Below are positions 9,073-32,000 of a stretch of 32,000 bases of DNA, in pieces. Under the pieces are notes generated by a model, which saw nothing but the letters and a program-made list of their open reading frames with translations, did no database searches and was not told the DNA's origin. Position 1 is the stretch's first letter. Every line of letters begins with the position of its first letter. The stretch comes from Pseudoalteromonas sp. NBT06-2 (GTDB taxonomy: Bacteria; Pseudomonadota; Gammaproteobacteria; Enterobacterales; Alteromonadaceae), in NCBI RefSeq assembly GCF_002276045.1, contig NZ_NQMR01000024.1, forward strand, positions 6,313-38,312, given 5' to 3'. The position numbers and the translations under genes are program-made.

Positions 9073-9223
9073 TAAAAGCTAGTCCATTAATAAAATAAGT
9101 ATGGCTTGAGTTTACCCCATTAAATATGTGACTGCACTACTAAGCGACAAGCACGAAAGACTAACTATTTAACCTTATTGAATAATCAGGTTAAAAAAAT
9201 TTAATCATTTACGCGCATTTTTA

Positions 9224-9270: not shown

Positions 9271-18606
<9,336 letters not shown>

Positions 18607-19407: not shown

Positions 19408-20406
19408 TCAGAATAAATTTAATCCAAAAGCTGATTTAACACGCTGAGAAACAGTCTGTGTTTGTTGGTTTGCCAGCTCGGTTCCAGATTTAAGAATAGA
19501 AATTAGTTCAGCTTTATCAGCCAAGTAACTCTCTCTCTTAGCTCTGTTCGGTGTTATTAGATTAATTAAACAATCACTTAAAATACCTTTAAGTTTACTA
19601 TCCCCTAATCCACCGGCTGCATAATGATTTTTGAGTTGTGTGATATAGGTTTTATCTTCATGAAAGGCATCTAAATATGTAAATACAACATTACCTTCAA
19701 TTTGTCCTGAATCATCTACTCTTAAGTGATTTGGGTCGGTATACATAGCACGAACAGCTTTCACTATCATGTCATCACTACTGCCAAAGGTAATCACATT
19801 ACCCAGTGATTTAGACATTTTAGCTTTACCATCAACACCCGGTAACCTAGGTGTATCACTCAACAAAGGCTTTGCTTCTACTAAAACAGGTTCCTTAGCA
19901 ATATTATTTAATTTTCTCACTATTTCATTGGTAATTTCTATCATAGGTAACTGATCATCACCAACAGGCACTAAAGTAGCATCAAAAGCTGTAATATCGG
20001 CAGCTTGGCTGATTGGATAGCTAAAAAAGCCAGCAGGTATAGAGTTGCCAAATTGTTTACTTGCAATCTCAGCCTTAACCGTTGGATTTCGCTCTAAACG
20101 TGAAACAGATACTAAATTTGCGTAAAACATGGCAAGTTCAGATAAAGCAGGCAAAGCTGATTGCAAACAAATCGTGGTTTTTTTAGGGCAAATACCAACA
20201 GCAAGATAATCAGCCAAAACATTTAAAATATTACCCGACACTTTTTGTGGGTTATGACCGTTATCAGTAAGACCTTGTAAATCAGCGATTAAAATTGTTT
20301 GTGAATACTGGTTTTGTAATTCAACTCGATTTTTTAACGAACCAACATAATGACCTAAATGAAGTGGCCCTGTAGGTCTATCGCCAGTTAAAATTTTGTG
20401 ATTCAT
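19408..20406 (-). CDS. trpS: Tryptophan--tRNA ligase (class I aaRS), type-II-like/divergent form
   Basis: HIGH-type motif TGDRPTGPLHLGHYVGS, KMSKS motif (GKAKMSKSLGN) and the central VPVGDDQ motif of TrpRS/TyrRS-type enzymes. I place the start at ATG 20406, preceded by AAGGA. The track's upstream start at 20469 adds 21 unlikely residues. Confidence 0.9.
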   Translation of the reverse strand: MNHKILTGDRPTGPLHLGHYVGSLKNRVELQNQYSQTILIADLQGLTDNGHNPQKVSGNILNVLADYLAVGICPKKTTICLQSALPALSELAMFYANLVSVSRLERNPTVKAEIASKQFGNSIPAGFFSYPISQAADITAFDATLVPVGDDQLPMIEITNEIVRKLNNIAKEPVLVEAKPLLSDTPRLPGVDGKAKMSKSLGNVITFGSSDDMIVKAVRAMYTDPNHLRVDDSGQIEGNVVFTYLDAFHEDKTYITQLKNHYAAGGLGDSKLKGILSDCLINLITPNRAKRESYLADKAELISILKSGTELANQQTQTVSQRVKSAFGLNLF

Positions 20407-20460
20407 GTGTAATTCCTTCAATTTAAAATAAGCGCCCAATGAGAAGGGGTTGGATGATAA

Positions 20461-21312
20461 CCAAGCCAAAGATTTGCCTACATTCGTGATAACAAACCAT
20501 GTAAAGCGATTGGCGATTTAGACAATAATGGCACACCCGATAATCATCAGGATGTTACAACGTTATCTGATAGCCACCCATGCCAAGCTATAAGTATAGA
20601 AGTGGTGAACACCGGAAATAAAGATCTTGAAGCTGAAAAGTCAGGTTCCTTTACCACAGGTTTTACTTATGAAGCCACAGATGATACCCGTTTTCATTTT
20701 AACCTTTATTATCAATATTTCGATAATGAAATTAGCTTGCTAGAGAATGATAAACTATTGGAGCGTGAAGGTTTATTTGGTGAAAATAAACGAGTGATCA
20801 GAGATCAGTACGGTAATTTAATTAGAATACTCAATAGTTACGGCAATTTTTCGGGGTCAAAAACAGCTGGAATCGATTTAGAATATGATTTGATTTGGCA
20901 AACAAAATTATATGGTTCATTTAAATGGTCTACTGAGATTACAGGTGTATTATTTCACAAAGCAGAAGTTATCCCAGGACAAGGATTTGATGATGTAAAT
21001 GGCGATTTAGGTAATACTGATGGTCGATTAAATACCTCTTTACGCTGGCACTTAGGTGATTGGAATACTTTACTCAGTGCTGATTTTTTGCCATCAACTG
21101 ATGAAAACGACATTAAATTAAAATCAACTATTGTCACTAATTTACAAACCAAATATCAACTCAGTAAACAGATGTATGCCTCTTTTGGTGCTTATAATTT
21201 ATTTGATATAGAACCACCCAATAACAAGGCTTTAGGTTGGCCGTACTATATGGCTGGCTTTGAATTTGTACAAGGTAGAACCTTATACTTAGATGTGTCG
21301 TATACTTTTTAA
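20461..21312 (+). pseudogene. 5'-truncated TonB-dependent receptor: only the C-terminal ~280 aa of the beta-barrel remain
   Basis: The frame is open from 20461 with no plausible start, plug domain or signal peptide. The translation ...EVVNTGNKDLEAEKSGSFTTGFTYE...FHFNLYYQYFDNEI...GRTLYLDVSYTF has the alternating beta-strand pattern and terminal aromatic (F) of TonB-dependent receptors. Intact TBDRs are 700-1000 aa. The fragment begins inside the trpS upstream region. Confidence 0.7.
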
Positions 21313-21492
21313 AGCTCGCTATTGCAGGGTTACTTAATTGGTAAGCCTGCTACTTCCACATACTCAATTTCAAACACCTCAATACTCTATAAAAAGTCAT
21401 CAATATAAAAACTCAAGTTTACCCATACATTAAAAATAAAATTAAACCACTAAATATCAAACCATTAGCCTAATACTAAATTTCATATTTTA

Positions 21493-21522
21493 TAAAGGTT
21501 CGGATAAGCGTTTTAACCTTTA
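21493..21522. promoter_or_regulatory. Inverted repeat TAAAGGTT-N14-AACCTTTA upstream of the GH16 gene (candidate operator)
   Basis: Perfect 8-bp arms at 21493-21500 and 21515-21522, about 125 nt upstream of the GH16 start. No U-tract follows, so it is unlikely to be a terminator. Confidence 0.25.
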
Positions 21523-21646
21523 TTCGAACGACACAAGTTAATAATACACATAACATTTATTCTGTCAGAGATATTTACCTAAGTATGCCTCTTGCTTAAA
21601 GGCCGTAAATATTAATATTTTTGCAATTAAAAAATAATAAAAATAG

Positions 21647-23404
21647 ATGGGACATTTAATGAAAAAAATAAAACCAATATCGCAAATACATAGATTAAAA
21701 GTAATGCTTCCTTATTGCTTTCTTGTATTACCCACATTGTCGTTTGCAGATATTTATCAAGCAGAAGATTACACTTGGTCATTTGATACAACGACTGGTA
21801 ATTCTGGTGGAGCGTATAAAACAGGAGATGTCGATATCCAAGCCACACAAGATGAAGGAGGTGGTTACAACGTTGGCTGGATAGAAAAAAATGAATGGTT
21901 AGCTTATCAAAATATAAAAATTGCACAATCCGGTAATTATATTGTAAATGCCAGAGTAGCCAGTCCATCTGGCGCTACATTTTCTATAGACTTAAATTCA
22001 GGAGAAACTCAGTTAGGCAGTTTTGAAATTCCAGCGACCGGAAGTTGGGATAAATGGATTACAGTAACAAAAACGATATATATTGAAGCAGGAATCCATA
22101 ATTTAGGTGTGTTTGCCGTTACTAATGGTTGGAATTTTAACTGGATAGAAATCATACCAGAAGCAGATATATTAAATGGGGAAGTAGTCTGGGCGGTAAA
22201 TGCTGGCGGCAACCAATATACCGCTGTAGATGGCACCGTTTATTTAGCTGATGAAGGCTTCACAGCAGGAACATCTGCTAAGACGACTCAAATAATTCAT
22301 GCGACCCAAGATAGCATTCTATATCAGAGTGAACGATGGGGTAATGATTTTAGTTACGAAAAAATCTTGGAAAATGGCACTTACCAAATCAATTTACGCT
22401 TAGCTGAAACTTACTGGCAAAGCCCTAATGACAGAAAATTTTCATTTAGCGCAGAAGGCCGGGAACGACTTAGCAGTATTGATATTGTTGCTGAGAAAGG
22501 CGGCAGAGATCATGCTGCTTATGATTTGTCTATTCCTGATGTTGTCGTGAGTGATGGTAAGTTAAATCTTAATTTTAAAGGTATCGTAGATGCAGCCAAA
22601 ATAAGTGCCTTTGCCGTGCGTAAATCCCATATGCCAGAAAATGAATGGCAACTTATATGGCAGGACGAATTTAATACCAATGGTGCTATTGATACAACCA
22701 AGTGGACTCATGAATTATGGGTGCCGGGACGAGTAAATAACGAATGGCAGCGCTATACCGACCGCCCTGAAAACTCACGAGTAGAAAATGGCAAGCTCGT
22801 GATCGAAGCGCGTAAAGATAACTATATGGGCGACGAATATTCATCAGCACGTATTCATAGTGCCAATAAAGCTGATTTTCTCTACGGACGAATAGAAGTG
22901 AGCGCCAAATTACCCAATGGTATCGGAACTTGGCCAGCTATATGGATGATGCCTACTGACGTATTTAGTTATGCAACAACCTGCGACGCACAAACGGGAT
23001 GGGATGAAGATTGTGATGCATGGCCAAATTCAGGAGAAATCGACATTATGGAACATGTTGGTTATGACACAGGTAAAGTACATGCCACGGTACATAACTT
23101 AGATGGATACTGGGTAAATGGTGAGCAGATCCAAGGCACTGTTTACCAACCAGCAGTAGATGATGGCTTTCATACTTATGCTTTAGAATGGTCGCCTGAC
23201 CGTATTGATATGTTTATTGATAACACCCTCTATTATACCTATGTTAATCCAAAAACGGGTTGGCAAGCCTGGCCTTACGATAAACCTTTTCATGTAATTC
23301 TAAATTTAGTGGTAGGTGGAGATTGGGGAGCGGTTGCCGGTGTTGACCCAGACATCTGGCCACAAAGAATGGAAGTTGATTACGTACGTATGTATCAAAA
23401 ATAA
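21647..23404 (+). CDS. Secreted endo-1,3-beta-glucanase (laminarinase): CBM6 + malectin-like domain + GH16 catalytic domain
   Basis: Signal peptide (..LPTLSFA/DI). CBM6-like module at aa 36-170 (YQAEDY...GDVDIQ...GGGYNVGW...GWNFNWIEI). Malectin-like module at aa 178-326 (AVNAGG..Y...DG..Y..D..F..G.......LYQSERWG..FSY......G.Y.I.L..AE). GH16 domain at aa 333-585 with WQDEFN and the catalytic ExDxxE motif GEIDIMEH (codons 23036-23053). The start could be ATG 21659 (MKKIKP) instead. Confidence 0.9.
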   Translation: MGHLMKKIKPISQIHRLKVMLPYCFLVLPTLSFADIYQAEDYTWSFDTTTGNSGGAYKTGDVDIQATQDEGGGYNVGWIEKNEWLAYQNIKIAQSGNYIVNARVASPSGATFSIDLNSGETQLGSFEIPATGSWDKWITVTKTIYIEAGIHNLGVFAVTNGWNFNWIEIIPEADILNGEVVWAVNAGGNQYTAVDGTVYLADEGFTAGTSAKTTQIIHATQDSILYQSERWGNDFSYEKILENGTYQINLRLAETYWQSPNDRKFSFSAEGRERLSSIDIVAEKGGRDHAAYDLSIPDVVVSDGKLNLNFKGIVDAAKISAFAVRKSHMPENEWQLIWQDEFNTNGAIDTTKWTHELWVPGRVNNEWQRYTDRPENSRVENGKLVIEARKDNYMGDEYSSARIHSANKADFLYGRIEVSAKLPNGIGTWPAIWMMPTDVFSYATTCDAQTGWDEDCDAWPNSGEIDIMEHVGYDTGKVHATVHNLDGYWVNGEQIQGTVYQPAVDDGFHTYALEWSPDRIDMFIDNTLYYTYVNPKTGWQAWPYDKPFHVILNLVVGGDWGAVAGVDPDIWPQRMEVDYVRMYQK

Positions 23405-23415
23405 AAAACAAGAAC

Positions 23416-23450
23416 AGCCATTTATTTTAATTTGATAAATGGCTTTTTTA
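23416..23450 (+). terminator. Rho-independent terminator after the GH16 gene
   Basis: AGCCATTTAT-tttaatttg-ATAAATGGCT followed by TTTTTT, 12 nt after the stop codon. Confidence 0.7.
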
Positions 23451-23552
23451 ATCTGATTGTTTTTGAAACTACATGCTTGGTTTTAACTGCATTTAAATTG
23501 AGATGCATATGAACCTCCTCTATTTATAAAAATAAAAAGGATACAAATAAAA

Positions 23553-25619
23553 ATGTCTGGGAAAAAACTTAAACTTAAATTTAAAAATAATAAATGTAGC
23601 CTTTCAGCTTTGCTTTTATTAGCTTCAGCTAGCACTTGTCTTGGGGCAAATGAAAGAATACAAGCCGAGAATTATAGCCACTTCATAGATACCACTCCTG
23701 GCAATCAAGGTGGCACATTACATAATGACGATGTAGATATTGAAGTAACGACTGACAATGATGGTGGTTTTAATGTCGGTTGGATCACTCAAGGAGAACG
23801 TTTAGATTATCAACTAGATTTATTATCAGGTAATTATAATTTAACAAGCAGAATTGCATCGGCTGTTAGTACTGGAAGTTATAGTGCATATATTGATGGT
23901 GAACTCATTGGAACTTATACAGTTGCAGATACTGGCGGCTGGCAGATATTTGATACTCACTTAATCGGTAATATCAATGTGAACACTGGGTCACACACTT
24001 TAGCAATAGAAGTGCATTCTGGTGATTTTAATCTTAACTGGTTTGAATTATCGGCTGTTAATTCAGATTTGGTAATACAAGCGGAAGATTATCAAAGGGC
24101 TTTTGATAGTACCGTTGGTAATACAGGCGGCGAATACCGTTTTGAGGATAATGTAGATATAGAAGTAAGTTCAGATATTGACGGTGGGTATAATCTTGGT
24201 TGGACAGACTCAGGTGAGTGGCTTGAGTTTGATATTTCCGTAGCTGATGGCAATTACAATTTAATTTCAAGAGTCGCGTCTAAACTTGATACAGGCCATT
24301 ATTCAATATTAATTGATGATGTATTAGTTAGCACTCATAACGTAAATAATACTGGCGACTGGCAAGTTTTTGAAAGTCAAAATTTAGGCGAAGTAAGCTT
24401 AACTTCTGGATCTCATACTTTAAGAATTAATATAGAACAGGGTGACTTCAATTTAAACTGGCTTAAATTGCAATATATTACGCCTCCTGCTGATAGTGAT
24501 AATGACGGTATAACTGATGAAATAGACATTTGCCCTGATACACCCGCTGAAACCAAAGTTGATGAAACAGGCTGTGAATTAATAATATTTCCTGCATATA
24601 AGAGTATAGAAGCCGAAAGCTATACTTTAATGAGCGGTATTAGTATTAAAAATAACGCCTATATTGGCTCATTTGATTCTGGAGATTATATTAACTTTAA
24701 AAATGTAGATTTTGGCGATATTTCTCAAAGTTTGACACTCAATGTTGCCGGTAAATCTGAAAATGGCATTGCTGAATTCAGAATAGACAGTCCTGAAGGT
24801 CCTTTAATTGCCAGCTACACTATGACCGCAACATCTGGTTGGCAGGTATTTGAACAAACGAGTATTAATATTACTGAAACCTCAGGGGTTCATGATCTTT
24901 ATATATCAGGTAAAACTGGCCAAGGAATTTTTAATCTTGATAACTTTATATTCTCAGCTAAAAAACGAGTCTCAGCCTCTGATATTAAGGTCATGACGCT
25001 TAATGTTTATGGTTGGGCCACAATGCCACAACATGCATCAAGTTATGCTGAACTAGTACATTCACGAAATGTCGATATTTTAGGAATACAAGAAGGTGCT
25101 GAAGACTGGTTAATTTCAACTGATTTTCCGACAGATTATAGCAGAGCGGATGCTTTAGGCGTGGCGTTAGGTGAATGCTGGCAACAAAGATATCAAATTT
25201 ATATTAACACTTGCAAAGGCAATAATTTTGTATCTAACGCTAGATTTGATTTAACTGACGGGCCAAATGCAGTTCGTACAGGTGAATCAGCACTCATTAA
25301 CAAAAATGGTTTTGATTACAGGGCCATAAATGTGCACTGGGATCATCAGGATGATGCAGTAACACTTATAAATGCCAATGAAACTGCAACTCATATAAAC
25401 CTTAATGCCTATATGCCTACTATTTTGGTGGGAGATTTTAATTCAAGCTGCACTGGTAACGAAGTGAGTACAACCATTCAACAAACTAATATGAGATTAA
25501 TTGGCAGCGCAAGAATCGATTGTATTATCACAAAAGGGTTTACTGGCACTGCAAAAGTCTTTGATGCAACACCTTCAGATCATCCTAGTTTAGATGCGAT
25601 ATTAACTCCTGATTTATAA
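23553..25619 (+). CDS. Secreted multidomain protein: CBM6 - CBM6 - thrombospondin-type-3-like Ca-binding linker - CBM6/35-like - endonuclease/exonuclease/phosphatase (EEP) domain
   Basis: Signal peptide aa 1-32. CBM6 modules at aa 35-167 and 175-307 (IQAE[ND]Y ... DVDIEV..D.DGG[FY]N[VL]GW ... GDFNLNW). TSP3-like DSDNDGITDEIDICPDTP at aa 314-331. A third CBM module at aa 351-468 (IEAESY...GDYINFKNVDFG...GWQVF...FNLDNFIF). EEP domain at aa 477-688 with ordered catalytic motifs MTLNVYG, ILGIQEG, NVHWDH, LVGDFN and PSDHPS. Confidence 0.85.
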   Translation: MSGKKLKLKFKNNKCSLSALLLLASASTCLGANERIQAENYSHFIDTTPGNQGGTLHNDDVDIEVTTDNDGGFNVGWITQGERLDYQLDLLSGNYNLTSRIASAVSTGSYSAYIDGELIGTYTVADTGGWQIFDTHLIGNINVNTGSHTLAIEVHSGDFNLNWFELSAVNSDLVIQAEDYQRAFDSTVGNTGGEYRFEDNVDIEVSSDIDGGYNLGWTDSGEWLEFDISVADGNYNLISRVASKLDTGHYSILIDDVLVSTHNVNNTGDWQVFESQNLGEVSLTSGSHTLRINIEQGDFNLNWLKLQYITPPADSDNDGITDEIDICPDTPAETKVDETGCELIIFPAYKSIEAESYTLMSGISIKNNAYIGSFDSGDYINFKNVDFGDISQSLTLNVAGKSENGIAEFRIDSPEGPLIASYTMTATSGWQVFEQTSINITETSGVHDLYISGKTGQGIFNLDNFIFSAKKRVSASDIKVMTLNVYGWATMPQHASSYAELVHSRNVDILGIQEGAEDWLISTDFPTDYSRADALGVALGECWQQRYQIYINTCKGNNFVSNARFDLTDGPNAVRTGESALINKNGFDYRAINVHWDHQDDAVTLINANETATHINLNAYMPTILVGDFNSSCTGNEVSTTIQQTNMRLIGSARIDCIITKGFTGTAKVFDATPSDHPSLDAILTPDL
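23655..24473 (+). repeat. Tandem duplication of a CBM6-encoding module within the CDS (two ~133-codon units)
   Basis: Units at 23655-24053 and 24075-24473 encode collinear modules. By eye, about half the residues are identical and the start and end motifs are the same. Confidence 0.7.
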
Positions 25620-25635
25620 AATTGGAACTAATAAC

Positions 25636-25658
25636 GGGGTCTTTTTAGACCCTTTTTA
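25636..25658 (+). terminator. Rho-independent terminator after the CBM6-EEP gene
   Basis: GGGGTC-ttttta-GACCC followed by TTTTT, 17 nt after the stop. Confidence 0.7.
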
Positions 25659-25839
25659 ATTTGTAGTTTTATGCTATATTTTTAAACTGATTTGCTAATA
25701 TACCCAAACCACTTCAAGATGCAGGTTTTAATAATGAGAGATATGAAGATCGAAAAATGAGTGACTGTGCATTGCGACAATACCTTAGCATGATATGATT
25801 TCTAAAAAATAATTAGAACTTGTTGTCTAAAAGAGAATT

Positions 25840-27018
25840 ATGAAGCCTTTTGAGTTCCAAACTGTATTGTTCAATTTTCATGACGTTATGCTTTTAATGA
25901 CAGTCATGCAATGCCTATTTTTTGGTACGCTACTTTATGTTACCAATACTAGCCGTATTAAAAGTACTTTGTTTCTTGCTGCCTTTTTGTTCGCCCATGC
26001 ATTGATCCCTGCCAATGAATTAATGATGTGGGGCGCAGAGTTTAAGTCTCTAGTAAGAAATCAATGGCCTAGTGTGCATTTTATACCTGGGATTGCCTAT
26101 TACATAGATGGACTTTTATTATTTTTTTGTATCAAGTCCTTAATATTTCGTAATTTTTCATTAAAAAAAATAGATCTACTTCATTTGTTACCTCTACTCG
26201 CATATATCATATTTATATCAACTGAATTCTATAGTCATTCTTTTGAGCAAAGACAAGAGATGCTCAATAGCGAATCTTTTGTATATAGTGCCGGTTATGT
26301 AACCATGGAATTCTTTAGTAAATGGGTGAGGTTTTTTTACGCAATTGCTTGCTTTGTATTAATATTTAAATACAAGAATCGGTTACAGGATACTCATTCA
26401 AACATAGAAAATGTGCATATAAATTGGCTAAATGGGCTTGTTGTTGGTTTTATGGTGGTAATGCTTTCGGAAGTAATATTAGTTGGCGCTAAGGTTTTTA
26501 ATTTGTTTTACCCTTTAGGAACCGACATGTTCATGTACCTAGGACTGACCGGAAATTACACCTCCTTTGTTTTAGTTAACTTATTAATATTTACCGCTAT
26601 TCGATATTTTTTGATATTTGAACAAGTAACTGATGATGAAACTATTAAAAAATCAGTAGATGATAAGTTTGTTAATCCTGATATGGCCGCTGAAGTTGAC
26701 TGTGCAATACTCAAAAGCAAAGCCTATATGGAACCTGATATTACGCTAGATAAACTCGCTGAGTCTTTGTCCATTATACCGCGAGATCTATCTATGTTGA
26801 TAAATCGCCATTTTGGTATTAATTTTTATGAGTTTATTAACAAATATCGTATTGAAGAAGCAAAAAAAATGCTCGTTGATCCAGAGCACAAAAACACCAC
26901 AATAACCGATATTTACCTAGCTGTAGGCTTTAACAGCAAATCAGTGTTTTACACTTTTTTTAAAAAGTTTGAAAGTGTCACGCCTTCTCAGTTTCGCCAA
27001 TCAGCTCTCTGTAAATAA
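25840..27018 (+). CDS. Membrane-embedded AraC-family regulator (about 6-7 N-terminal TM helices + C-terminal AraC HTH)
   Basis: Residues 15-260 are a series of hydrophobic spans, for example VMLLMTVMQCLFFGTLLYV, LFLAAFLFAHALIPA, IPGIAYYIDGLLLFFCIKSLIF, LLHLLPLLAYIIFIS, VRFFYAIACFVLIF, LNGLVVGFMVVMLSEVILVG and SFVLVNLLIFTAIRYFLIF. Residues ~290-390 carry the dual AraC HTH (ITLDKLAESLSIIPRDLSMLINRHFGINFYEFINKYRIEEAKKML......TITDIYLAVGFNSKSVFYTFFKKFESVTPSQFR). Confidence 0.85.
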   Translation: MKPFEFQTVLFNFHDVMLLMTVMQCLFFGTLLYVTNTSRIKSTLFLAAFLFAHALIPANELMMWGAEFKSLVRNQWPSVHFIPGIAYYIDGLLLFFCIKSLIFRNFSLKKIDLLHLLPLLAYIIFISTEFYSHSFEQRQEMLNSESFVYSAGYVTMEFFSKWVRFFYAIACFVLIFKYKNRLQDTHSNIENVHINWLNGLVVGFMVVMLSEVILVGAKVFNLFYPLGTDMFMYLGLTGNYTSFVLVNLLIFTAIRYFLIFEQVTDDETIKKSVDDKFVNPDMAAEVDCAILKSKAYMEPDITLDKLAESLSIIPRDLSMLINRHFGINFYEFINKYRIEEAKKMLVDPEHKNTTITDIYLAVGFNSKSVFYTFFKKFESVTPSQFRQSALCK

Positions 27019-27081: not shown

Positions 27082-28533
27082 TTAATAAACTAACGTTTGC
27101 ATAGCTCTGGCAGGGATAGTCAAAATTGATTGTTTACCTTCAACAATAAAATTGTAGTTAACTTTTTCATCTGTTTGGTTCATGACAATCGTAGCCATTA
27201 TATTATCTTCATTAACAAATGATGTCGCTAACAAGACACTGCGACTACTACTGGTACTCATACGTTGTGCATTAGGGCGAACAAATTTTGAAAAATGACC
27301 GATATAATAATAAGTTGGCGTATAAATTAACTCTCCAGTCGACGTATTAGCATGGATAGGCGCAAAACAAAAATTACTCACATGATTTGGACCTCCATTT
27401 TGATCTAATAATATATTCCAATCAGTCCAGCCAACCGTACCTTTGTTAAAATCATTAATCATCGAATGGCCGTATCGCTCTGCATTTGGCCAATACTGAT
27501 AACGATCGGCTCTAAAATTTTCATTTGTTCCTTCTGTGAACATAAGCTTCATATCAGGATATGACTCTGTCACTAAAGCGAGGTTGTCATGCATGGTTTT
27601 TCCACCAGCCCAAGTTTCATACCAGTGAAAGCCAATGCCCCATGCATATTTTGCCGCTTCAGGATCATCAAATATAGTGTTAGCACGATTAGTGATTAAA
27701 TCACGATTATGATCCCAAACAACAATATTTTTATCACCATAACCTGACTTCTCCATAATCGGCCCTAAATGATTTTTTAAGAAATCACGCTCTTCCTCTG
27801 CCGTATAAATCATTGATTCCCAGCGCTGCACTGCCATAGGTTCATTCTGAATTGTCACTCCCCAAATAGGCATACCCTCAGCTTCATAAGCTTTTATAAA
27901 CTTAGTAAAATAAGTTGCCCAAGTATCATAATACTCTGGCAGCAACTTTCCACCTTGCAGCATGTTATTATTAGTTTTCATAAAAGCAGGCGCACTCCAA
28001 GGACTGGCATAAAGCATTAAATTGCCTCCAGCTGTGTCGATTGCTTGTTTGATTAACGGAATACGAAACTCACGATCATGGTCAATGCTAAAACTAGATA
28101 ATGACTTATCCCCCTCATCTATATATGTATGGCTACCGCTGCCAAAATCAGAACTGTGGATAGGAGTACGAGCCAAAGAATAACCAATGCCAGCCTTAGG
28201 ATCATAATAAGCTTTTAGCATTTCATTTTGTTTATCTTTTGGCAACTTAGCAAATACTTCAGCACTAGCATCAGTAATTGCACCACCTATGCCTAGTATT
28301 TTTTGAAAACGCTTATTTGGGTTTACAAAAACCGAAACCTCTCCTTCCGTAGGCTGTACACTTGGTTTTAACGTCTTTTGTTGCGTTAAAGTCAAGCGCA
28401 TATCGGTATCTTTAGCAGTAGTATAAACCGCTATTTTATTTGCATAAAATGAAGCTGCATGAAGATAAGTTGATGTTATGCCTGCCATTAACGGAGCTAA
28501 CAGCACAGGTACTATGAACTTTTTTTTATTCAT
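27082..28533 (-). CDS. Secreted GH30 glycoside hydrolase (glucosylceramidase-like; probable beta-1,6-glucosidase/glucanase)
   Basis: Signal peptide (..STYLHA/AS). Collinear with GH30_1 enzymes and human GBA as I recall them: GIGGAITDASA, GIGYSLARTPIHSSDF, LYASPWSAPAFMKTN, the acid/base motif VTIQNEP and the nucleophile motif KLMFTEGT. It starts 36 bp after the GH5 stop, so it is probably co-transcribed with GH5. Confidence 0.9.
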   Translation of the reverse strand: MNKKKFIVPVLLAPLMAGITSTYLHAASFYANKIAVYTTAKDTDMRLTLTQQKTLKPSVQPTEGEVSVFVNPNKRFQKILGIGGAITDASAEVFAKLPKDKQNEMLKAYYDPKAGIGYSLARTPIHSSDFGSGSHTYIDEGDKSLSSFSIDHDREFRIPLIKQAIDTAGGNLMLYASPWSAPAFMKTNNNMLQGGKLLPEYYDTWATYFTKFIKAYEAEGMPIWGVTIQNEPMAVQRWESMIYTAEEERDFLKNHLGPIMEKSGYGDKNIVVWDHNRDLITNRANTIFDDPEAAKYAWGIGFHWYETWAGGKTMHDNLALVTESYPDMKLMFTEGTNENFRADRYQYWPNAERYGHSMINDFNKGTVGWTDWNILLDQNGGPNHVSNFCFAPIHANTSTGELIYTPTYYYIGHFSKFVRPNAQRMSTSSSRSVLLATSFVNEDNIMATIVMNQTDEKVNYNFIVEGKQSILTIPARAMQTLVY

Positions 28534-28569: not shown

Positions 28570-31113
28570 TTAAGGTAAAACGGAAAATTGCATCCAGTTA
28601 AAATTCCAGCCGCCACCAAGAGACTCTATTCGTAAGGTATGTTCGCCTGCAGGTAGGTTTAACGTACTAGTTTGAGTAGACCATGACTGCCAACCTCCAG
28701 TGGAGTTCACTGTGACTGTATCTATTAACTCTCCATCTAGTGTTAAATTAAAACCGTCACTACCACTTTCACTCGCCAATCGGTATTCGACCTGATAGCT
28801 GCCCGCTTCATTAATATTAACGTTGTACTCTAGCCAATCATCTGTATCAGCAAAACCAGTATTGTTACCACCACCAATGTCTGATGTTACTTCAACTTCA
28901 AATCCAGCCATATCAGTCCAATTTTCTGCTTGAATTACACCTGGTAACGTATTAACTAGCACACCCGATACAACTTCTTCACTATCAAAACTAATATCCT
29001 GGGCATCAATAGCCGTTATTTTGAAATAATAAATATTAGAGTCAGTAATGGTTGTATCTGAAAAAGTTTCGGCTGCTGCATTTTCAGCAATTAATTGGTA
29101 ATTTGAATTATTATTAGTGCTGCGGTAAATATTGTAGCCAGTAACATCTTCTTCTTGATTAGCGTTCCAACTTAAATGTGCGCCAACATCATCAAGCATA
29201 ATGCTTAAACCTGTTGGTTTTGCAGGTAATGTATATAATGTTGAAGCTTGTGTTGCAGTCATCGCAGTTAAAAGCGGTTGGTGAATGTCATATTCAACCG
29301 TACCGTACAGTTGAAATATTGATTCTATTTCGGCTATTGGTGCATTGGCAAAATCAACACTGGGTAATGCTTGTTCAGAAACAACATCTTTTCCCTCAAC
29401 TGGTTCATCTGTCACAATATATATTTCAGCCCATGCATTTACACTGGTGTTATCTTTAAAAACACCTGAAAGCGTATAATTTTTACCACCTTCCAAAGTG
29501 ATTGCTTGATAGATGCCACCATTAAACTCTGTGATATTTGTATCAGTCAAACCACTCATTCTTAACACAGTACCTTCAGAGCCTGTAGGAAAACTATCAG
29601 CATCAGTCACATTATAATCTATTGTTGGTGCACCGCTAGCAACCCAAGTTGTCCAACTATTTTGTGAGCCAAAATTTCCATTTAATATAACTTCATTACC
29701 TAAGTCATCCAGTAAGCTAATTTTATCAAGTGTTATATCAAGCTTACCTCCACAGCAAGTACCCGATTTAATAACTAGGTAATACGTTTGCTTACCTGCG
29801 ACAGTAGGAGAAATTGCATCGCTAGCAGCAGCACATGCATTACTAAAACTACTATCCCAGCCTGCACAATTCCATGTTGAAGCCTTGGTTACTAACCCTA
29901 AGCTGTTTTTTTTATTTGTGACCATGCCCCATGTTCCAGCACCTTGACCACCATCACCCGTTAACACTTTATATGACCAGTTAGTTGCAGCCCAATTTAG
30001 CTCAGCAAATTTATCGTAAGTTGCACGTGCATTTTCACCACCAAACTCATAACCTAAACTTTGCCATGGTTGAAACTCACCAATTAACAATGGCGATGCT
30101 AAATCTTGCATTTTTGCATCCCATGCACACACTCCACCCGCACCATCTTCGCCACAAGTTAACCAATCTCGATGTGTTTCATAATTTGGCTCTGCCCAAC
30201 CGAAAATACCGGGATAAAAATGCATTTCAAACGCAACATTTGTACCATCAAACGAATCAGGATGGCCATATTCATCAATACCAGAATGATGCCCAGGAAG
30301 CACAATTATTTTTTTTGCATCAGTTTCACGAACCGCTTTATATAAATCAATCATGACATTAGCTAGATTATCCGCTTCGGTTCCCCAAGGTTCATTGAGT
30401 AAACCATATGCTGCAACAGTGCCGTTATCCTTATAACGTTCGGCGATTTGTTGCCATAGCCAGATTGTACGTTCTTGATATTCAGGTGTACTCCAGTATT
30501 GATTTTGTCCAGCACAACCAGAATGATCAGCCCAACCTTGAGCGCCAACAGCACCATGTAAATCTAAAATGACATACATACCGCGTGCTTGTGCTTGTTC
30601 AATTGCATAATCAATATATTGCCAAGCATCGGCACGCAAAGTCATAGGATTTTTTTCGTTTTCAATCACATTCCAAACAAAGGGTAATCTAATGGTATTT
30701 AAGCCATAACTTTCTAATATGTCCCAATCCCGTTCAGCTATCCAGTTATCACGAAACATATCTAATAAACGTTCACGCTCTTCAAAACCAAATCGTTCAT
30801 CAAAAGTCGCCTCCAAAGTACATTGATCTGTTGCAACAGTATTTGATGATTGATTCATCATCCAAAACTCGTGTAATAACCAATTACCTAAATTAGTGCC
30901 TTTTAAAGTTACAGTTTTATTTTCTGCATTAACCCATTTAACACCCTCAGTATGAAGTGCCGATAACCCAACTAACTTTGGCTGAGGATCTACTGATGGA
31001 ATGGTAGTTGAAGTTGAATCTAGATCTGGTGAGTCACTATTAACTCCACATGCAGTCATGACCACAGTTAAGAGTCCATAGAGTAAAAATTTTGCTAGAG
31101 ATATTATTTTCAT
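28570..31113 (-). CDS. Lipoprotein GH5 beta-glucanase with a CBM4/9-like module, an FN3 domain and a C-terminal CBM6
   Basis: Lipobox LLTVVMTAC (Cys22). GH5 (cellulase-family) domain at aa ~55-400 with GTNLGNWLLHEFW, IRLPF, VILDLHG, acid/base LLNEPWG and nucleophile LIGEFQPW. A beta-sandwich module at aa ~470-575 (VILNGNFGS..W..W). FN3 at aa ~630-718 (PTGLS...LSWNAN.EEDVTGYNIYRS). CBM6 at aa 727-846 (IQAENW...GGGNNTGF...GWNFNWMQF). Confidence 0.9.
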   Translation of the reverse strand: MKIISLAKFLLYGLLTVVMTACGVNSDSPDLDSTSTTIPSVDPQPKLVGLSALHTEGVKWVNAENKTVTLKGTNLGNWLLHEFWMMNQSSNTVATDQCTLEATFDERFGFEERERLLDMFRDNWIAERDWDILESYGLNTIRLPFVWNVIENEKNPMTLRADAWQYIDYAIEQAQARGMYVILDLHGAVGAQGWADHSGCAGQNQYWSTPEYQERTIWLWQQIAERYKDNGTVAAYGLLNEPWGTEADNLANVMIDLYKAVRETDAKKIIVLPGHHSGIDEYGHPDSFDGTNVAFEMHFYPGIFGWAEPNYETHRDWLTCGEDGAGGVCAWDAKMQDLASPLLIGEFQPWQSLGYEFGGENARATYDKFAELNWAATNWSYKVLTGDGGQGAGTWGMVTNKKNSLGLVTKASTWNCAGWDSSFSNACAAASDAISPTVAGKQTYYLVIKSGTCCGGKLDITLDKISLLDDLGNEVILNGNFGSQNSWTTWVASGAPTIDYNVTDADSFPTGSEGTVLRMSGLTDTNITEFNGGIYQAITLEGGKNYTLSGVFKDNTSVNAWAEIYIVTDEPVEGKDVVSEQALPSVDFANAPIAEIESIFQLYGTVEYDIHQPLLTAMTATQASTLYTLPAKPTGLSIMLDDVGAHLSWNANQEEDVTGYNIYRSTNNNSNYQLIAENAAAETFSDTTITDSNIYYFKITAIDAQDISFDSEEVVSGVLVNTLPGVIQAENWTDMAGFEVEVTSDIGGGNNTGFADTDDWLEYNVNINEAGSYQVEYRLASESGSDGFNLTLDGELIDTVTVNSTGGWQSWSTQTSTLNLPAGEHTLRIESLGGGWNFNWMQFSVLP

Positions 31114-31301: not shown

Positions 31302-32000
31302 CTAGAATACATAACGGGCACCGAGGTTATATCGAGTGTGTCCAACAGAGTACTCTCGTACTTGATAGCTAGAGCGACCATGTATCCGTTGATCTTCTTC
31401 AGTCAGATTTATGCCCTCAAGAAACACTGACAATTTATCATTCACTTCATAACTGATGTTGGCATCCCACTGGAAGTATTCCTCAACAAATCTTGGGTCT
31501 CTACTTGTAGACTGTAAGTATTTATCACGCCAGTTATAAGCAAGCCTTACCTGCAAGCCATCCTTTTCATAAAAAGCAACAAGGTTAGCGGTATCACTCA
31601 TACCAGGCACAACCCATTGCGCTTCATTTTTATTGATATCGTAATTTAAATCGCCCTCTACAATAGTGAAGTTAGCTTGAAGCCCAAAACCTGTTTCACC
31701 GAAGGTATGTTGCATCGCAACTTCCCAACCTTTAACCGTGGTTTTATTTTGGTTAATTGGAATATTGACATCAAATTTAGCAACCGGATCTGAACCTAAT
31801 CCTGTGACAACAACTTCAATATCCTCGCCTTCACCAGTAACCACTATGTTTGCCTCATCACCATAATGCTCCGCAAAATAGGCGTTAAGATCGGCATTGT
31901 CGTATTCAAACTGAGGATCGCCGCCAGTAATAGCTTCAACTGCTTGCTCATAAAGCGCACCTTCGATTGGTGTTGTTAGATCACTAAAAAGAGGTTGGTC
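31302..32000 (-). CDS. TonB-dependent outer-membrane receptor, C-terminal part (N-terminus outside the window)
   Basis: I checked that the frame stays open from 31844 to the window edge at 32000. The GTG at 31844 is therefore not the real start. Beta-barrel strand pattern with the terminal ...RYNLGARYVF (C-terminal Phe). It sits at the head of the GH5-GH30 genes on the same strand. Confidence 0.85.
   Translation of the reverse strand, partial: DQPLFSDLTTPIEGALYEQAVEAITGGDPQFEYDNADLNAYFAEHYGDEANIVVTGEGEDIEVVVTGLGSDPVAKFDVNIPINQNKTTVKGWEVAMQHTFGETGFGLQANFTIVEGDLNYDINKNEAQWVVPGMSDTANLVAFYEKDGLQVRLAYNWRDKYLQSTSRDPRFVEEYFQWDANISYEVNDKLSVFLEGINLTEEDQRIHGRSSYQVREYSVGHTRYNLGARYVF

Follow-up and report, generated by a model that had tools for sequence, protein, structure and literature searches.

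Laminarin-type beta-glucans are among the largest carbon fluxes of the ocean, and their bacterial breakdown is usually described with glycoside hydrolases (GHs) alone. The glucan phosphatases SEX4, LSF2 and laforin, which are tethered by carbohydrate-binding modules (CBMs), remove phosphate esters so that glucan hydrolases can proceed, and the phosphomannanase of yeast-lytic bacteria, the subject of McLellan, McDaniel and Lampen in 1970, is said to be a phosphodiester-directed helper that opens a beta-glucan wall to lysis by beta-1,3-glucanases. In the yeast alpha-mannan polysaccharide utilization loci (PULs) of Bacteroides thetaiotaomicron, BT3783 and BT2630 are Mg-dependent phosphatases of the endonuclease/exonuclease/phosphatase (EEP) fold that were assayed on phosphorylated sugars, and BT3783 was also assayed on a phosphorylated high-mannose N-glycan (Cuskin et al. 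2015, PMC4978465). By these assays, phosphoglycan-directed EEP enzymes encoded in PULs are an experimentally established kind. Here we describe, in a 32,000-nucleotide stretch of Pseudoalteromonas sp. NBT06-2 (contig NZ_NQMR01000024.1, positions 6,313 to 38,312; hereafter the window), a complete gene at 23553..25619 on the + strand whose product joins three CBM6 modules and a thrombospondin type 3 (TSP3)-like linker to a C-terminal EEP domain. We propose that the product is secreted, is tethered to polysaccharide and, as a Mg2+-dependent phosphoesterase, frees beta-glucan-rich substrates of phosphate decorations or cross-links in mono- or diester linkage, a reading that in our judgment stands about evenly balanced between right and wrong.

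The open reading frame (ORF) begins with ATG and encodes 688 aa, as the ORF list and an exact-sequence match to PAJ75077.1 / WP_095366021.1 of the same strain agree; public annotation of WP_095366021.1 is merely "hypothetical protein" or "carbohydrate-binding protein". By eye, the translation opens with a signal peptide of approximately aa 1-32 (23553..23648, MSGKKLKLKFKNNKCSLSALLLLASASTCLG/AN) comprising a K-rich n-region, an LSALLLLASAS core and a CLG/AN cleavage site. Pfam finds CBM_6 in three stretches (E 2.4e-59, 199.6 bits), and each module also matches CBM6 chains in the Protein Data Bank (PDB), whose alignments place the modules at approximately aa 55-166, 184-312 and 348-469. All lie on the + strand: CBM6a at aa 35-167 (23655..24053; Pfam CBM_6; PDB 5fui, E 3.3e-12, and 1uxz), CBM6b at aa 175-307 (24075..24473; Pfam CBM_6 and CBM_35_2; PDB 8zvk and 5g56/2y8k) and CBM6c, a divergent classical CBM6, at aa 347-469 (24591..24959; best Pfam CBM_6 stretch aa 353-468; PDB 2v4v, 1gmm and 1w9s). 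The gene, the signal peptide and the three modules are thus as the initial annotation, made from the DNA letters, had described them. The TSP3-like linker is less certain: a single acidic repeat at aa 313-333 (24489..24551, + strand, beginning DSDNDGITDEIDICPDTP) displays DxDxDGxxDxxDxCP by eye, and an NCBIfam model matches aa 313-366 (E 1.4e-06), but the Pfam TSP_3 score is below threshold (17.3 bits against a 25-bit cutoff, E 0.0039). Clear TSP3 repeats occur in relatives, reaching 51.6 bits in a Hahella protein (P0067) and 35 bits in a Microbulbifer GH30.

CBM6a and CBM6b form a tandem pair with 49% identity to each other, and each is 35-39% identical to the CBM6 modules of the GH16 and GH5 enzymes encoded nearby. 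CBM6c lacks an insert of approximately 20 residues and shares 20-30% identity with the other CBM6 modules. A claim that the protein has its CBM6 type in common with these two glycoside hydrolases therefore holds for the tandem pair but not for CBM6c, which is a divergent subtype. Beta-1,3-glucan binding is predicted by similarity, via the match of CBM6a to 5fui, a CBM6 chain named endo-1,3-beta-glucanase GH16; ligand specificity in CBM6 is flexible (PMC2386152). Only about 8 residues link CBM6c to the EEP domain, and the two align as a unit, without a break and at 41% identity, to a Bermanella protein of GH16-CBM6-EEP architecture.

The EEP catalytic domain (aa 477-688; 24981..25616, + strand) was delimited from Pfam, a family alignment, a residue check, an AlphaFold (AF2) model, Foldseek and a profile search of the PDB. 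Exo_endo_phos (PF03372) covers aa 481-677 over profile positions 1-225 of 225 with a marginal score (26.8 bits against a 24.5 cutoff), in a family whose members score 25.8-38.9 bits. The five ordered EEP motifs reported at the outset are all present and hold the catalytic residues N484, E514, H595/D597, D628/N630 and D676/H677, a set that is invariant or at least 90% conserved in the 33-member family alignment. The same alignment contains a family-specific RFDLTDGPNATRTGE loop and four invariant cysteines (542, 554, 633 and 657), which fit an extracytoplasmic location. The AF2 model of aa 470-688 is of high quality (mean pLDDT 93.3, pTM 0.91) and retrieves 157 PDB matches with Foldseek at E<=1e-3, all listed ones having the EEP fold; a Foldseek probability of 1.00 to many EEP structures places the domain in the four-layer alpha/beta-sandwich fold. 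Orthologues at 92%, 69% and 67% identity have the same CBM6x3-EEP layout, and among them conservation is highest in the EEP domain (76-77%, with the CBMs at 63-69%). The possibility that the domain is non-catalytic was considered and ruled out, as its catalytic residues are all invariant in the sense given above and no other part of the protein is as well conserved; we predict from the sequence and the model that it is catalytically competent.

Two comparisons place the domain within the EEP superfamily. A profile of the family searched against all PDB sequences is led by 3l1w, 3g6s, 4c1r and 3mpr (E 6e-08 to 3e-05), including BT3783 itself (4c1r, named mannosyl-6-phosphatase, E 2.2e-05; 3mpr, E 3e-05), and an [NT]xHxDH...R...GDFN block is aligned between the family and these top relatives. 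Foldseek ranks 1-5 are taken by the same proteins (3mpr 1.2e-13, 4c1r 1.5e-12, 3g6s and 3l1w; range 1e-13 to 2e-11). By profile and by fold, the nearest solved relatives are thus Bacteroides PUL-encoded EEP proteins including BT3783, and not nucleases or sphingomyelinases.

Members of this EEP family are mostly stand-alone secreted or lipoprotein forms of approximately 240 aa. A search with aa 470-688 recovered 59 relatives at 45-63% identity, plus one at 92%, from Colwelliaceae, Paraglaciecola, Alteromonadaceae, Rhodothermales, Polyangia and Latescibacterota. When 1.84 billion cluster representatives were searched exhaustively by profile, 32 were found at E<=1e-30 and 52 at E<=1e-10, beyond which profile scores drop to the generic EEP level. 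Judged by these searches, the family is small, marine and sharply bounded.

Coupling to beta-1,3-glucan machinery is a repeated feature of the family, and we regard covalent fusions as more telling evidence than gene neighbours. GH16, CBM6 and EEP domains share a single polypeptide in Bermanella (L025) and in P0186, P0182 is a CBM56-CBM6x2-EEP fusion, and other fusions have the form CBM6-FN3-EEP, CBM6-RicinB-EEP and FN3-EEP. In a further locus (L046), a CBM6-EEP gene stands directly between GH17 and GH64 genes. An EEP domain fused to a protein of the ADP-ribosylglycohydrolase fold (ARH-like) occurs in Microbulbifer agarilyticus, where the gene adjoins one for GH30-TSP3-CBM6. Two further proteins outside the family combine the same elements: in P0067 of Hahella chejuensis an EEP domain of a different, more BT3783-like subfamily is fused to GH16-TSP3-CBM6x2, and in P0162 (ARH-CBM6x3-Metallophos) a non-homologous metallophosphoesterase occupies the position of the EEP domain. 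Together with the fusions within the family, these indicate that phosphoester hydrolysis was recruited repeatedly to beta-1,3-glucan modules, and with more than one fold.

Gene neighbourhoods were compared by clustering the ORFs from 36 loci encoding family members and annotating the recurrent clusters. The commonest neighbour is an ARH-like protein (17/36 loci), followed by an esterase/lipase-fold lipoprotein that is frequent in Colwellia and by GH3 (12/36 each), a TonB-dependent receptor (TBDR; 11/36), an AraC regulator, a GH5 (cluster c6) and a GH5-CBM6 protein (cluster c7; 10/36 each), a tryptophan-halogenase-like protein (9/36), and GH30 and GH63-like proteins (5/36 each). GH3, GH5, GH16, GH30 or GH63-like genes are found in the flanks of 22 of the 36 loci. 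In the Colwelliaceae the gene order is TBDR, halogenase-like, GH3, ARH, esterase and EEP, beside GH5-CBM6 genes and AraC regulators. Association with beta-glucan genes is thus frequent and is seen in lineages that are not related, in some cases as a GH16-CBM6-EEP fusion, but it is not universal (see P0061 below).

The window itself has a comparable setting. Upstream of the EEP gene lies a GH16 laminarinase with N-terminal CBM6 and malectin modules (21647..23404, +; Pfam), whose catalytic domain matches the Rhodothermus laminarinase 3iln (E 6.4e-67), and downstream an AraC-family regulator with a membrane-spanning N-terminal part (25840..27018, +; Pfam HTH_18 and HTH_AraC), homologs of which recur in Colwellia EEP loci. 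These are followed on the - strand by a GH30 gene (27082..28533; Pfam; PDB 2wnw 6.2e-78, 1ogs 1.5e-73), a GH5 with a C-terminal CBM6 (28570..31113; Pfam; PDB 8z2w, 6zb9 and 1eqp), the catalytic domain of which is closest to beta-1,3-glucosidases and exo-beta-1,3-glucanases in the PDB, and a TonB-dependent receptor gene of which only the 3' end lies in the window (31302..32000; Pfam; 96% identical in contig L006). The placement of the gene between a GH16 laminarinase and a regulator, as first described, is thus supported by Pfam, and by its gene content we assign the locus to beta-1,3-glucan use.

Terminator-like hairpins with T-runs, both identified by consensus match only, lie 3' of the GH16 gene and 5' of the EEP gene (23416..23444, +) and just past the EEP stop codon (25636..25653, +), for which reason the EEP gene is likely to be transcribed on its own. 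One motif, TTTTAAyCTGATT, is common to the promoters of the GH2, EEP and AraC genes (9184-9196, -; 23446-23458, +; 25680-25692, +); it hints at a shared operator, but three matches against 0.89 expected are not significant (5 of 100 shuffles reach three). Scans of the window for tRNA genes and Rfam families gave no match.

On the favoured reading, the CBM6 modules would keep the enzyme attached to material rich in beta-glucan, and the EEP domain would hydrolyse phosphate esters on that material or bridging it to other polymers. The targets might be phosphomonoesters, or substituents attached by phosphodiester linkage, on the glucan or on oligosaccharides derived from it, and candidate substrates may include oomycete-type phosphoglucans, the phosphoglycerol, phosphoethanolamine and phosphocholine substituents of bacterial beta-glucans, and the GPI-remnant (glycosylphosphatidylinositol) or phosphomannan links of microbial-eukaryote walls. 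Phosphate removal would let the GH16, GH30, GH5 and GH3 enzymes finish, as an accessory step in beta-1,3/1,6-glucan (laminarin-type) breakdown. In lineages in which the EEP protein is paired with or fused to an ARH-like hydrolase, two steps may be envisaged, glycosyl or ribosyl decapping by the latter followed by dephosphorylation. An equivalent two-step removal is performed in the yeast-mannan PUL by the GH92 enzyme BT2629 and then BT3783. The title of a 1973 paper by Wang and Bartnicki-Garcia reportedly puts phosphorylated storage beta-1,3-glucans on record for stramenopiles. We favour this reading because of the catalytic residue set, the subfamily placement, the repeated coupling to beta-1,3-glucan machinery, the convergence seen in Hahella and P0162, the beta-1,3-glucan locus of the window and this phosphoglucan title. 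The initial annotation had called the protein a secreted, glycan-targeted phosphodiesterase/nuclease-fold enzyme inside a beta-glucan locus, and the domains, catalytic residues and locus support the core of this, an EEP-fold phosphoesterase directed at glycan; of its three suggested roles, action on phosphorylated or otherwise decorated glycans is the one we favour, the BT3783 type being nearest, while the nuclease and lipid roles rank lower.

Several observations weigh against this reading. With BT3783 the identity is no more than 14-18%, and the family forms a branch of its own with far shorter domains (approximately 210 aa against approximately 285 aa); as a separate family at such identity, it can be said to work like the BT3783 type, not to be one. 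A 69%-identical orthologue (P0061) sits between a Na/Ala symporter and PntB, outside any glycan locus, the GH16-EEP gene of Hahella chejuensis is an orphan, and several Polyangia and Latescibacterota loci have unrelated neighbours and no glycan genes. Many of the supportive loci lack independence, being drawn from close relatives within the Colwelliaceae, and the rough neighbour-joining tree that places the fusions in at least 4-5 separate clades has no support values. The window has neither an ARH nor an esterase partner. Phosphorylation is not mentioned in the reviews of stramenopile laminarin that were consulted, and commercial or textbook laminarin is described as neutral. Finally, PLD-like and purple-acid-phosphatase-like domains also occur fused to CBM6, which would suit a general scavenging of phosphorus by particle-anchored enzymes too.

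This last point belongs to the strongest competing explanation, which we nonetheless consider unlikely: that the protein is a particle-anchored EEP nuclease or phosphate scavenger, in which the CBM6 modules only immobilise on algal gels and marine particles an enzyme degrading extracellular DNA, RNA or organic phosphorus, so as to clear the matrix or harvest phosphate, with no direct action on the glycan. Nucleases are numerous in the EEP superfamily, and Foldseek does reach TDP2 (6e-11) and CNOT6L (8e-10), but these rank below the sugar phosphatases that are nearest by both profile and fold, and in the profile search DNase I (E 0.11-0.21), ExoIII (E 0.86) and TDP2 all fall in the range of 0.1-0.9. 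The best nuclease models in NCBIfam, xth (E 0.12) and PRK05421 (E 0.089), are far below their cutoffs, and no extracellular-nuclease model is among the NCBIfam matches of the 688-aa protein, although the collection presumably includes one of the ExeM/NucH type. With a pI of 4.7 and a net charge of approximately -12 the catalytic domain is acidic; it is also the most compact EEP domain among those compared and is without evident DNA-binding insertions. The position of P0061 outside glycan loci, the terminator-like hairpins that would make the gene its own transcription unit, and the fusion of CBM6 to metallophosphoesterase as well as PLD-like and purple-acid-phosphatase-like folds, a general theme, are all compatible with scavenging. 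Against it, the intergenic regions of the locus contain no Pho-box-like site, none of the recurrent neighbour clusters is a nuclease, nucleotide-uptake or pst-type gene, and covalent fusions to GH16 are hard to explain for a nuclease.

Considerably less probable is a lipid or glycolipid phosphodiesterase, sphingomyelinase- or phospholipase C-like, that would act with GH30 on phosphosphingolipids, glycosyl-inositol-phosphoceramides or GPI anchors of algal or fungal cells. Among PDB chains, those most similar to the neighbouring GH30 were named glucosylceramidase or the like by their depositors (SrfJ 6e-78; human GBA1 1.5e-73), with 5ngk behind them (1e-52), but glucosylceramidase-like GH30 enzymes are also found in laminarin loci as beta-1,6-glucosidases. 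Foldseek finds neutral sphingomyelinases, both bacterial and human, at about 1e-09 (TM approximately 0.70), but first at rank 34 (E 1.1e-09), and none is in the PDB profile list at E<=10. The esterase/lipase-fold lipoproteins near a third of the EEP genes (12/36 loci, frequent in Colwellia) would suit a lipid substrate, whereas the fusion partners of the family are glycan modules (CBM6, CBM56, RicinB, FN3 and GH16) and never lipid-binding domains. The idea that the EEP protein and its ARH-like partner dismantle ADP-ribose conjugates, NAD-derived molecules or ribitol- or ribose-phosphate polymers draws on the frequency of that partner (17/36), on its fusion in Microbulbifer and on the ribose utilisation systems (rus-type PULs) of Bacteroidetes, which list ADP-ribosylglycohydrolases and an "EEPase" among their enzymes (bioRxiv 10.1101/574913), but is a similarly slim prospect given that an ARH partner is absent from the window and from the members linked to GH16, CBM56, GH17 and GH64, that no recurrent neighbour cluster is a ribokinase or nucleoside hydrolase and that the ARH-like family is itself fused to CBM6 (P0162), pointing back to a glycan substrate.

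Shorter relatives of the gene occur in nature. Forms of 258-273 aa that are more than 90% identical are present on several metagenome contigs (P0001, P0321-P0327; L006:1174-2162 compared with window 21490-25619), in which a deletion of the equivalent of window 21788-24940 has removed the GH16 gene together with the three CBM6 modules and left the GH16 signal peptide joined in frame to the EEP domain. A collapse in the Logan assembly was considered for the 273-aa P0001 and ruled out, as 258-273-aa forms are found on several independent JGI contigs and as a degenerate remnant of CBM6c is retained at the junction. Given its presence on several independent contigs, the hybrid of GH16 signal peptide and EEP domain is taken as a real population variant. 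These deletions indicate that the CBM tether comes and goes over short periods and that the catalytic domain persists.

Some further observations concern the surroundings of the locus and of its relatives. At 20602-21312 (+), near trpS (19408-20469, -), the window encodes only the C-terminal ~236 aa of a TBDR barrel (Pfam positions 261-436 of 436), a truncated remnant that we read as the trace of a rearrangement bounding the glucan locus on its left; the left flank of the 92%-identical contig L006 is unrelated to that of the window. Farther upstream, genes for a LacZ-like GH2 (9298-12501) and a GH63/YgjK-like protein (12501-14990) overlap by stop and start codons, and the 3' end of the latter overlaps convergently, by 32 bp, a gene for a 1215-aa histidine kinase whose sensor domains are Reg_prop and Y_Y_Y (14959-18606). 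A GH63-like gene is also recurrent in Colwellia EEP loci. In L046 (8378-13412), the GH17 and GH64 proteins both have DUF7910/FRG1/fascin-like beta-trefoil modules; the contig is transposase-rich, which suggests that GH17, CBM6-EEP and GH64 constitute a mobile beta-1,3-glucan cassette. ARH-like lipoproteins, represented at L018:6250-7665, L017:7486-8886, L034:8438-10642 and in P0162, belong to a marine, uncharacterised family with more than 6000 matches at E<=1e-20, a list that is uninformative on substrate, and the ARH-like partner had no match in the PDB by phmmer. In other marine bacteria (P0070, P0071, P0094, P0132, P0143 and P0150) CBM6 is fused to di-haem oxidoreductase (DUF1111), purple-acid-phosphatase-like and PLD-like domains, so that glycan-tethered enzymes other than glycosidases look like a wider theme.

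Coupling of EEP domains to GH16, GH17, GH64, GH30 and CBM56/CBM6 would imply that the natural substrate, unlike purified commercial laminarin, carries phosphate esters or phosphodiester bridges. Rather speculatively, we suggest that natural marine beta-1,3-glucans or the glycoconjugates embedding them have overlooked phosphate esters or cross-links, and that marine bacteria possess a hitherto unrecognised class of dedicated CBM-tethered beta-glucan phosphatases or phosphodiesterases, often ARH-paired; the materials concerned may be diatom chrysolaminarin, oomycete-type phosphoglucans and microbial-eukaryote walls. If true, the laminarin pathway would gain an extra enzymatic step, the cycling of carbon and phosphorus on particles would be linked, and the recalcitrance of some natural glucan to glucanase cocktails would be explained. 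It would also provide a function for two uncharacterised marine families, the EEP family and its ARH-like partner, and, for beta-glucan, an equivalent both of what glucan phosphatases do for starch and glycogen and of what BT3783 does in yeast-mannan breakdown, with the complete turnover of a large ocean carbon pool depending on such enzymes.

Among described systems, several share part of this design. The secreted EEP nucleases, namely DNase I, Xds of Vibrio and ExeM/NucH of Shewanella, likewise combine the EEP fold with secretion, in the latter two cases by marine gammaproteobacteria, but the window protein has no significant profile match to them and no DNA-binding accessory domains, having glycan-binding modules instead. 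Likeness to phosphomannanase is conceptual, and to our knowledge neither a sequence nor a fold has been established for that enzyme. SEX4, LSF2 and laforin differ in having a dual-specificity phosphatase fold with CBM20 or CBM48 and in acting on alpha-glucans inside eukaryotic cells, so the parallel is one of analogy and not homology. Lam16A of Saccharophagus degradans, with the architecture GH16/CBM6/CBM6/TSP3x4/COG3488 (PMC2386152), resembles the window protein in its CBM6 modules, its TSP3 linkers (in the window protein a single TSP3-like repeat) and the presence of a non-glycosidase appendage in a secreted beta-1,3-glucan enzyme; its appendage is thiol-oxidoreductase-like and not a phosphoesterase, however, and the window protein has no GH domain of its own. 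P0067 of Hahella chejuensis KCTC 2396, a marine gammaproteobacterial and uncharacterised protein ('Beta-glucanase/Beta-glucan synthetase', 1140 aa) arranged as GH16-TSP3-CBM6-CBM6-TSP3-EEP with a GH16 of laminarinase type, differs in having GH16 in the same polypeptide and an EEP domain from the more BT3783-like subfamily (3g6s 2e-10), and looks like an independent recruitment of EEP.

The searchable literature yielded no EEP enzyme in laminarin PULs, no CBM6+EEP enzyme and nothing on strain NBT06-2, and no characterised member of this EEP family or of the CBM6-EEP architecture, in agreement with the initial annotation, which knew of no characterised CBM6-EEP enzyme. The absence of precedent that it implied was overstated, since PUL-encoded EEP phosphatases acting on phosphoglycans are known (BT3783 and BT2630; PMC4978465), and the CBM6-EEP and GH16-CBM6-EEP architectures are already in public databases as uncharacterised proteins, for example in Hahella chejuensis. 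BT3783 and BT2630 (PDB 3MPR, 4C1R) are like the window protein in fold, in catalytic residues, in the HxDH...R...GDFN block and in being encoded in a glycan-utilisation locus, where they are accessory phosphoesterases for glycoside hydrolases. The window EEP domain is approximately 75 residues shorter than BT3783 and belongs to a separate family, and it is part of a secreted protein with three CBM6 modules encoded in a gammaproteobacterial TBDR/AraC locus for beta-glucan, whereas BT3783 belongs to a Sus-like PUL for alpha-mannan. BT3783 is not known to carry a CBM. An accessory EEP phosphoesterase in a glycan locus is therefore known from Bacteroides; what is new is a compact, marine, CBM-tethered and beta-glucan-linked EEP family together with its ARH partnership.

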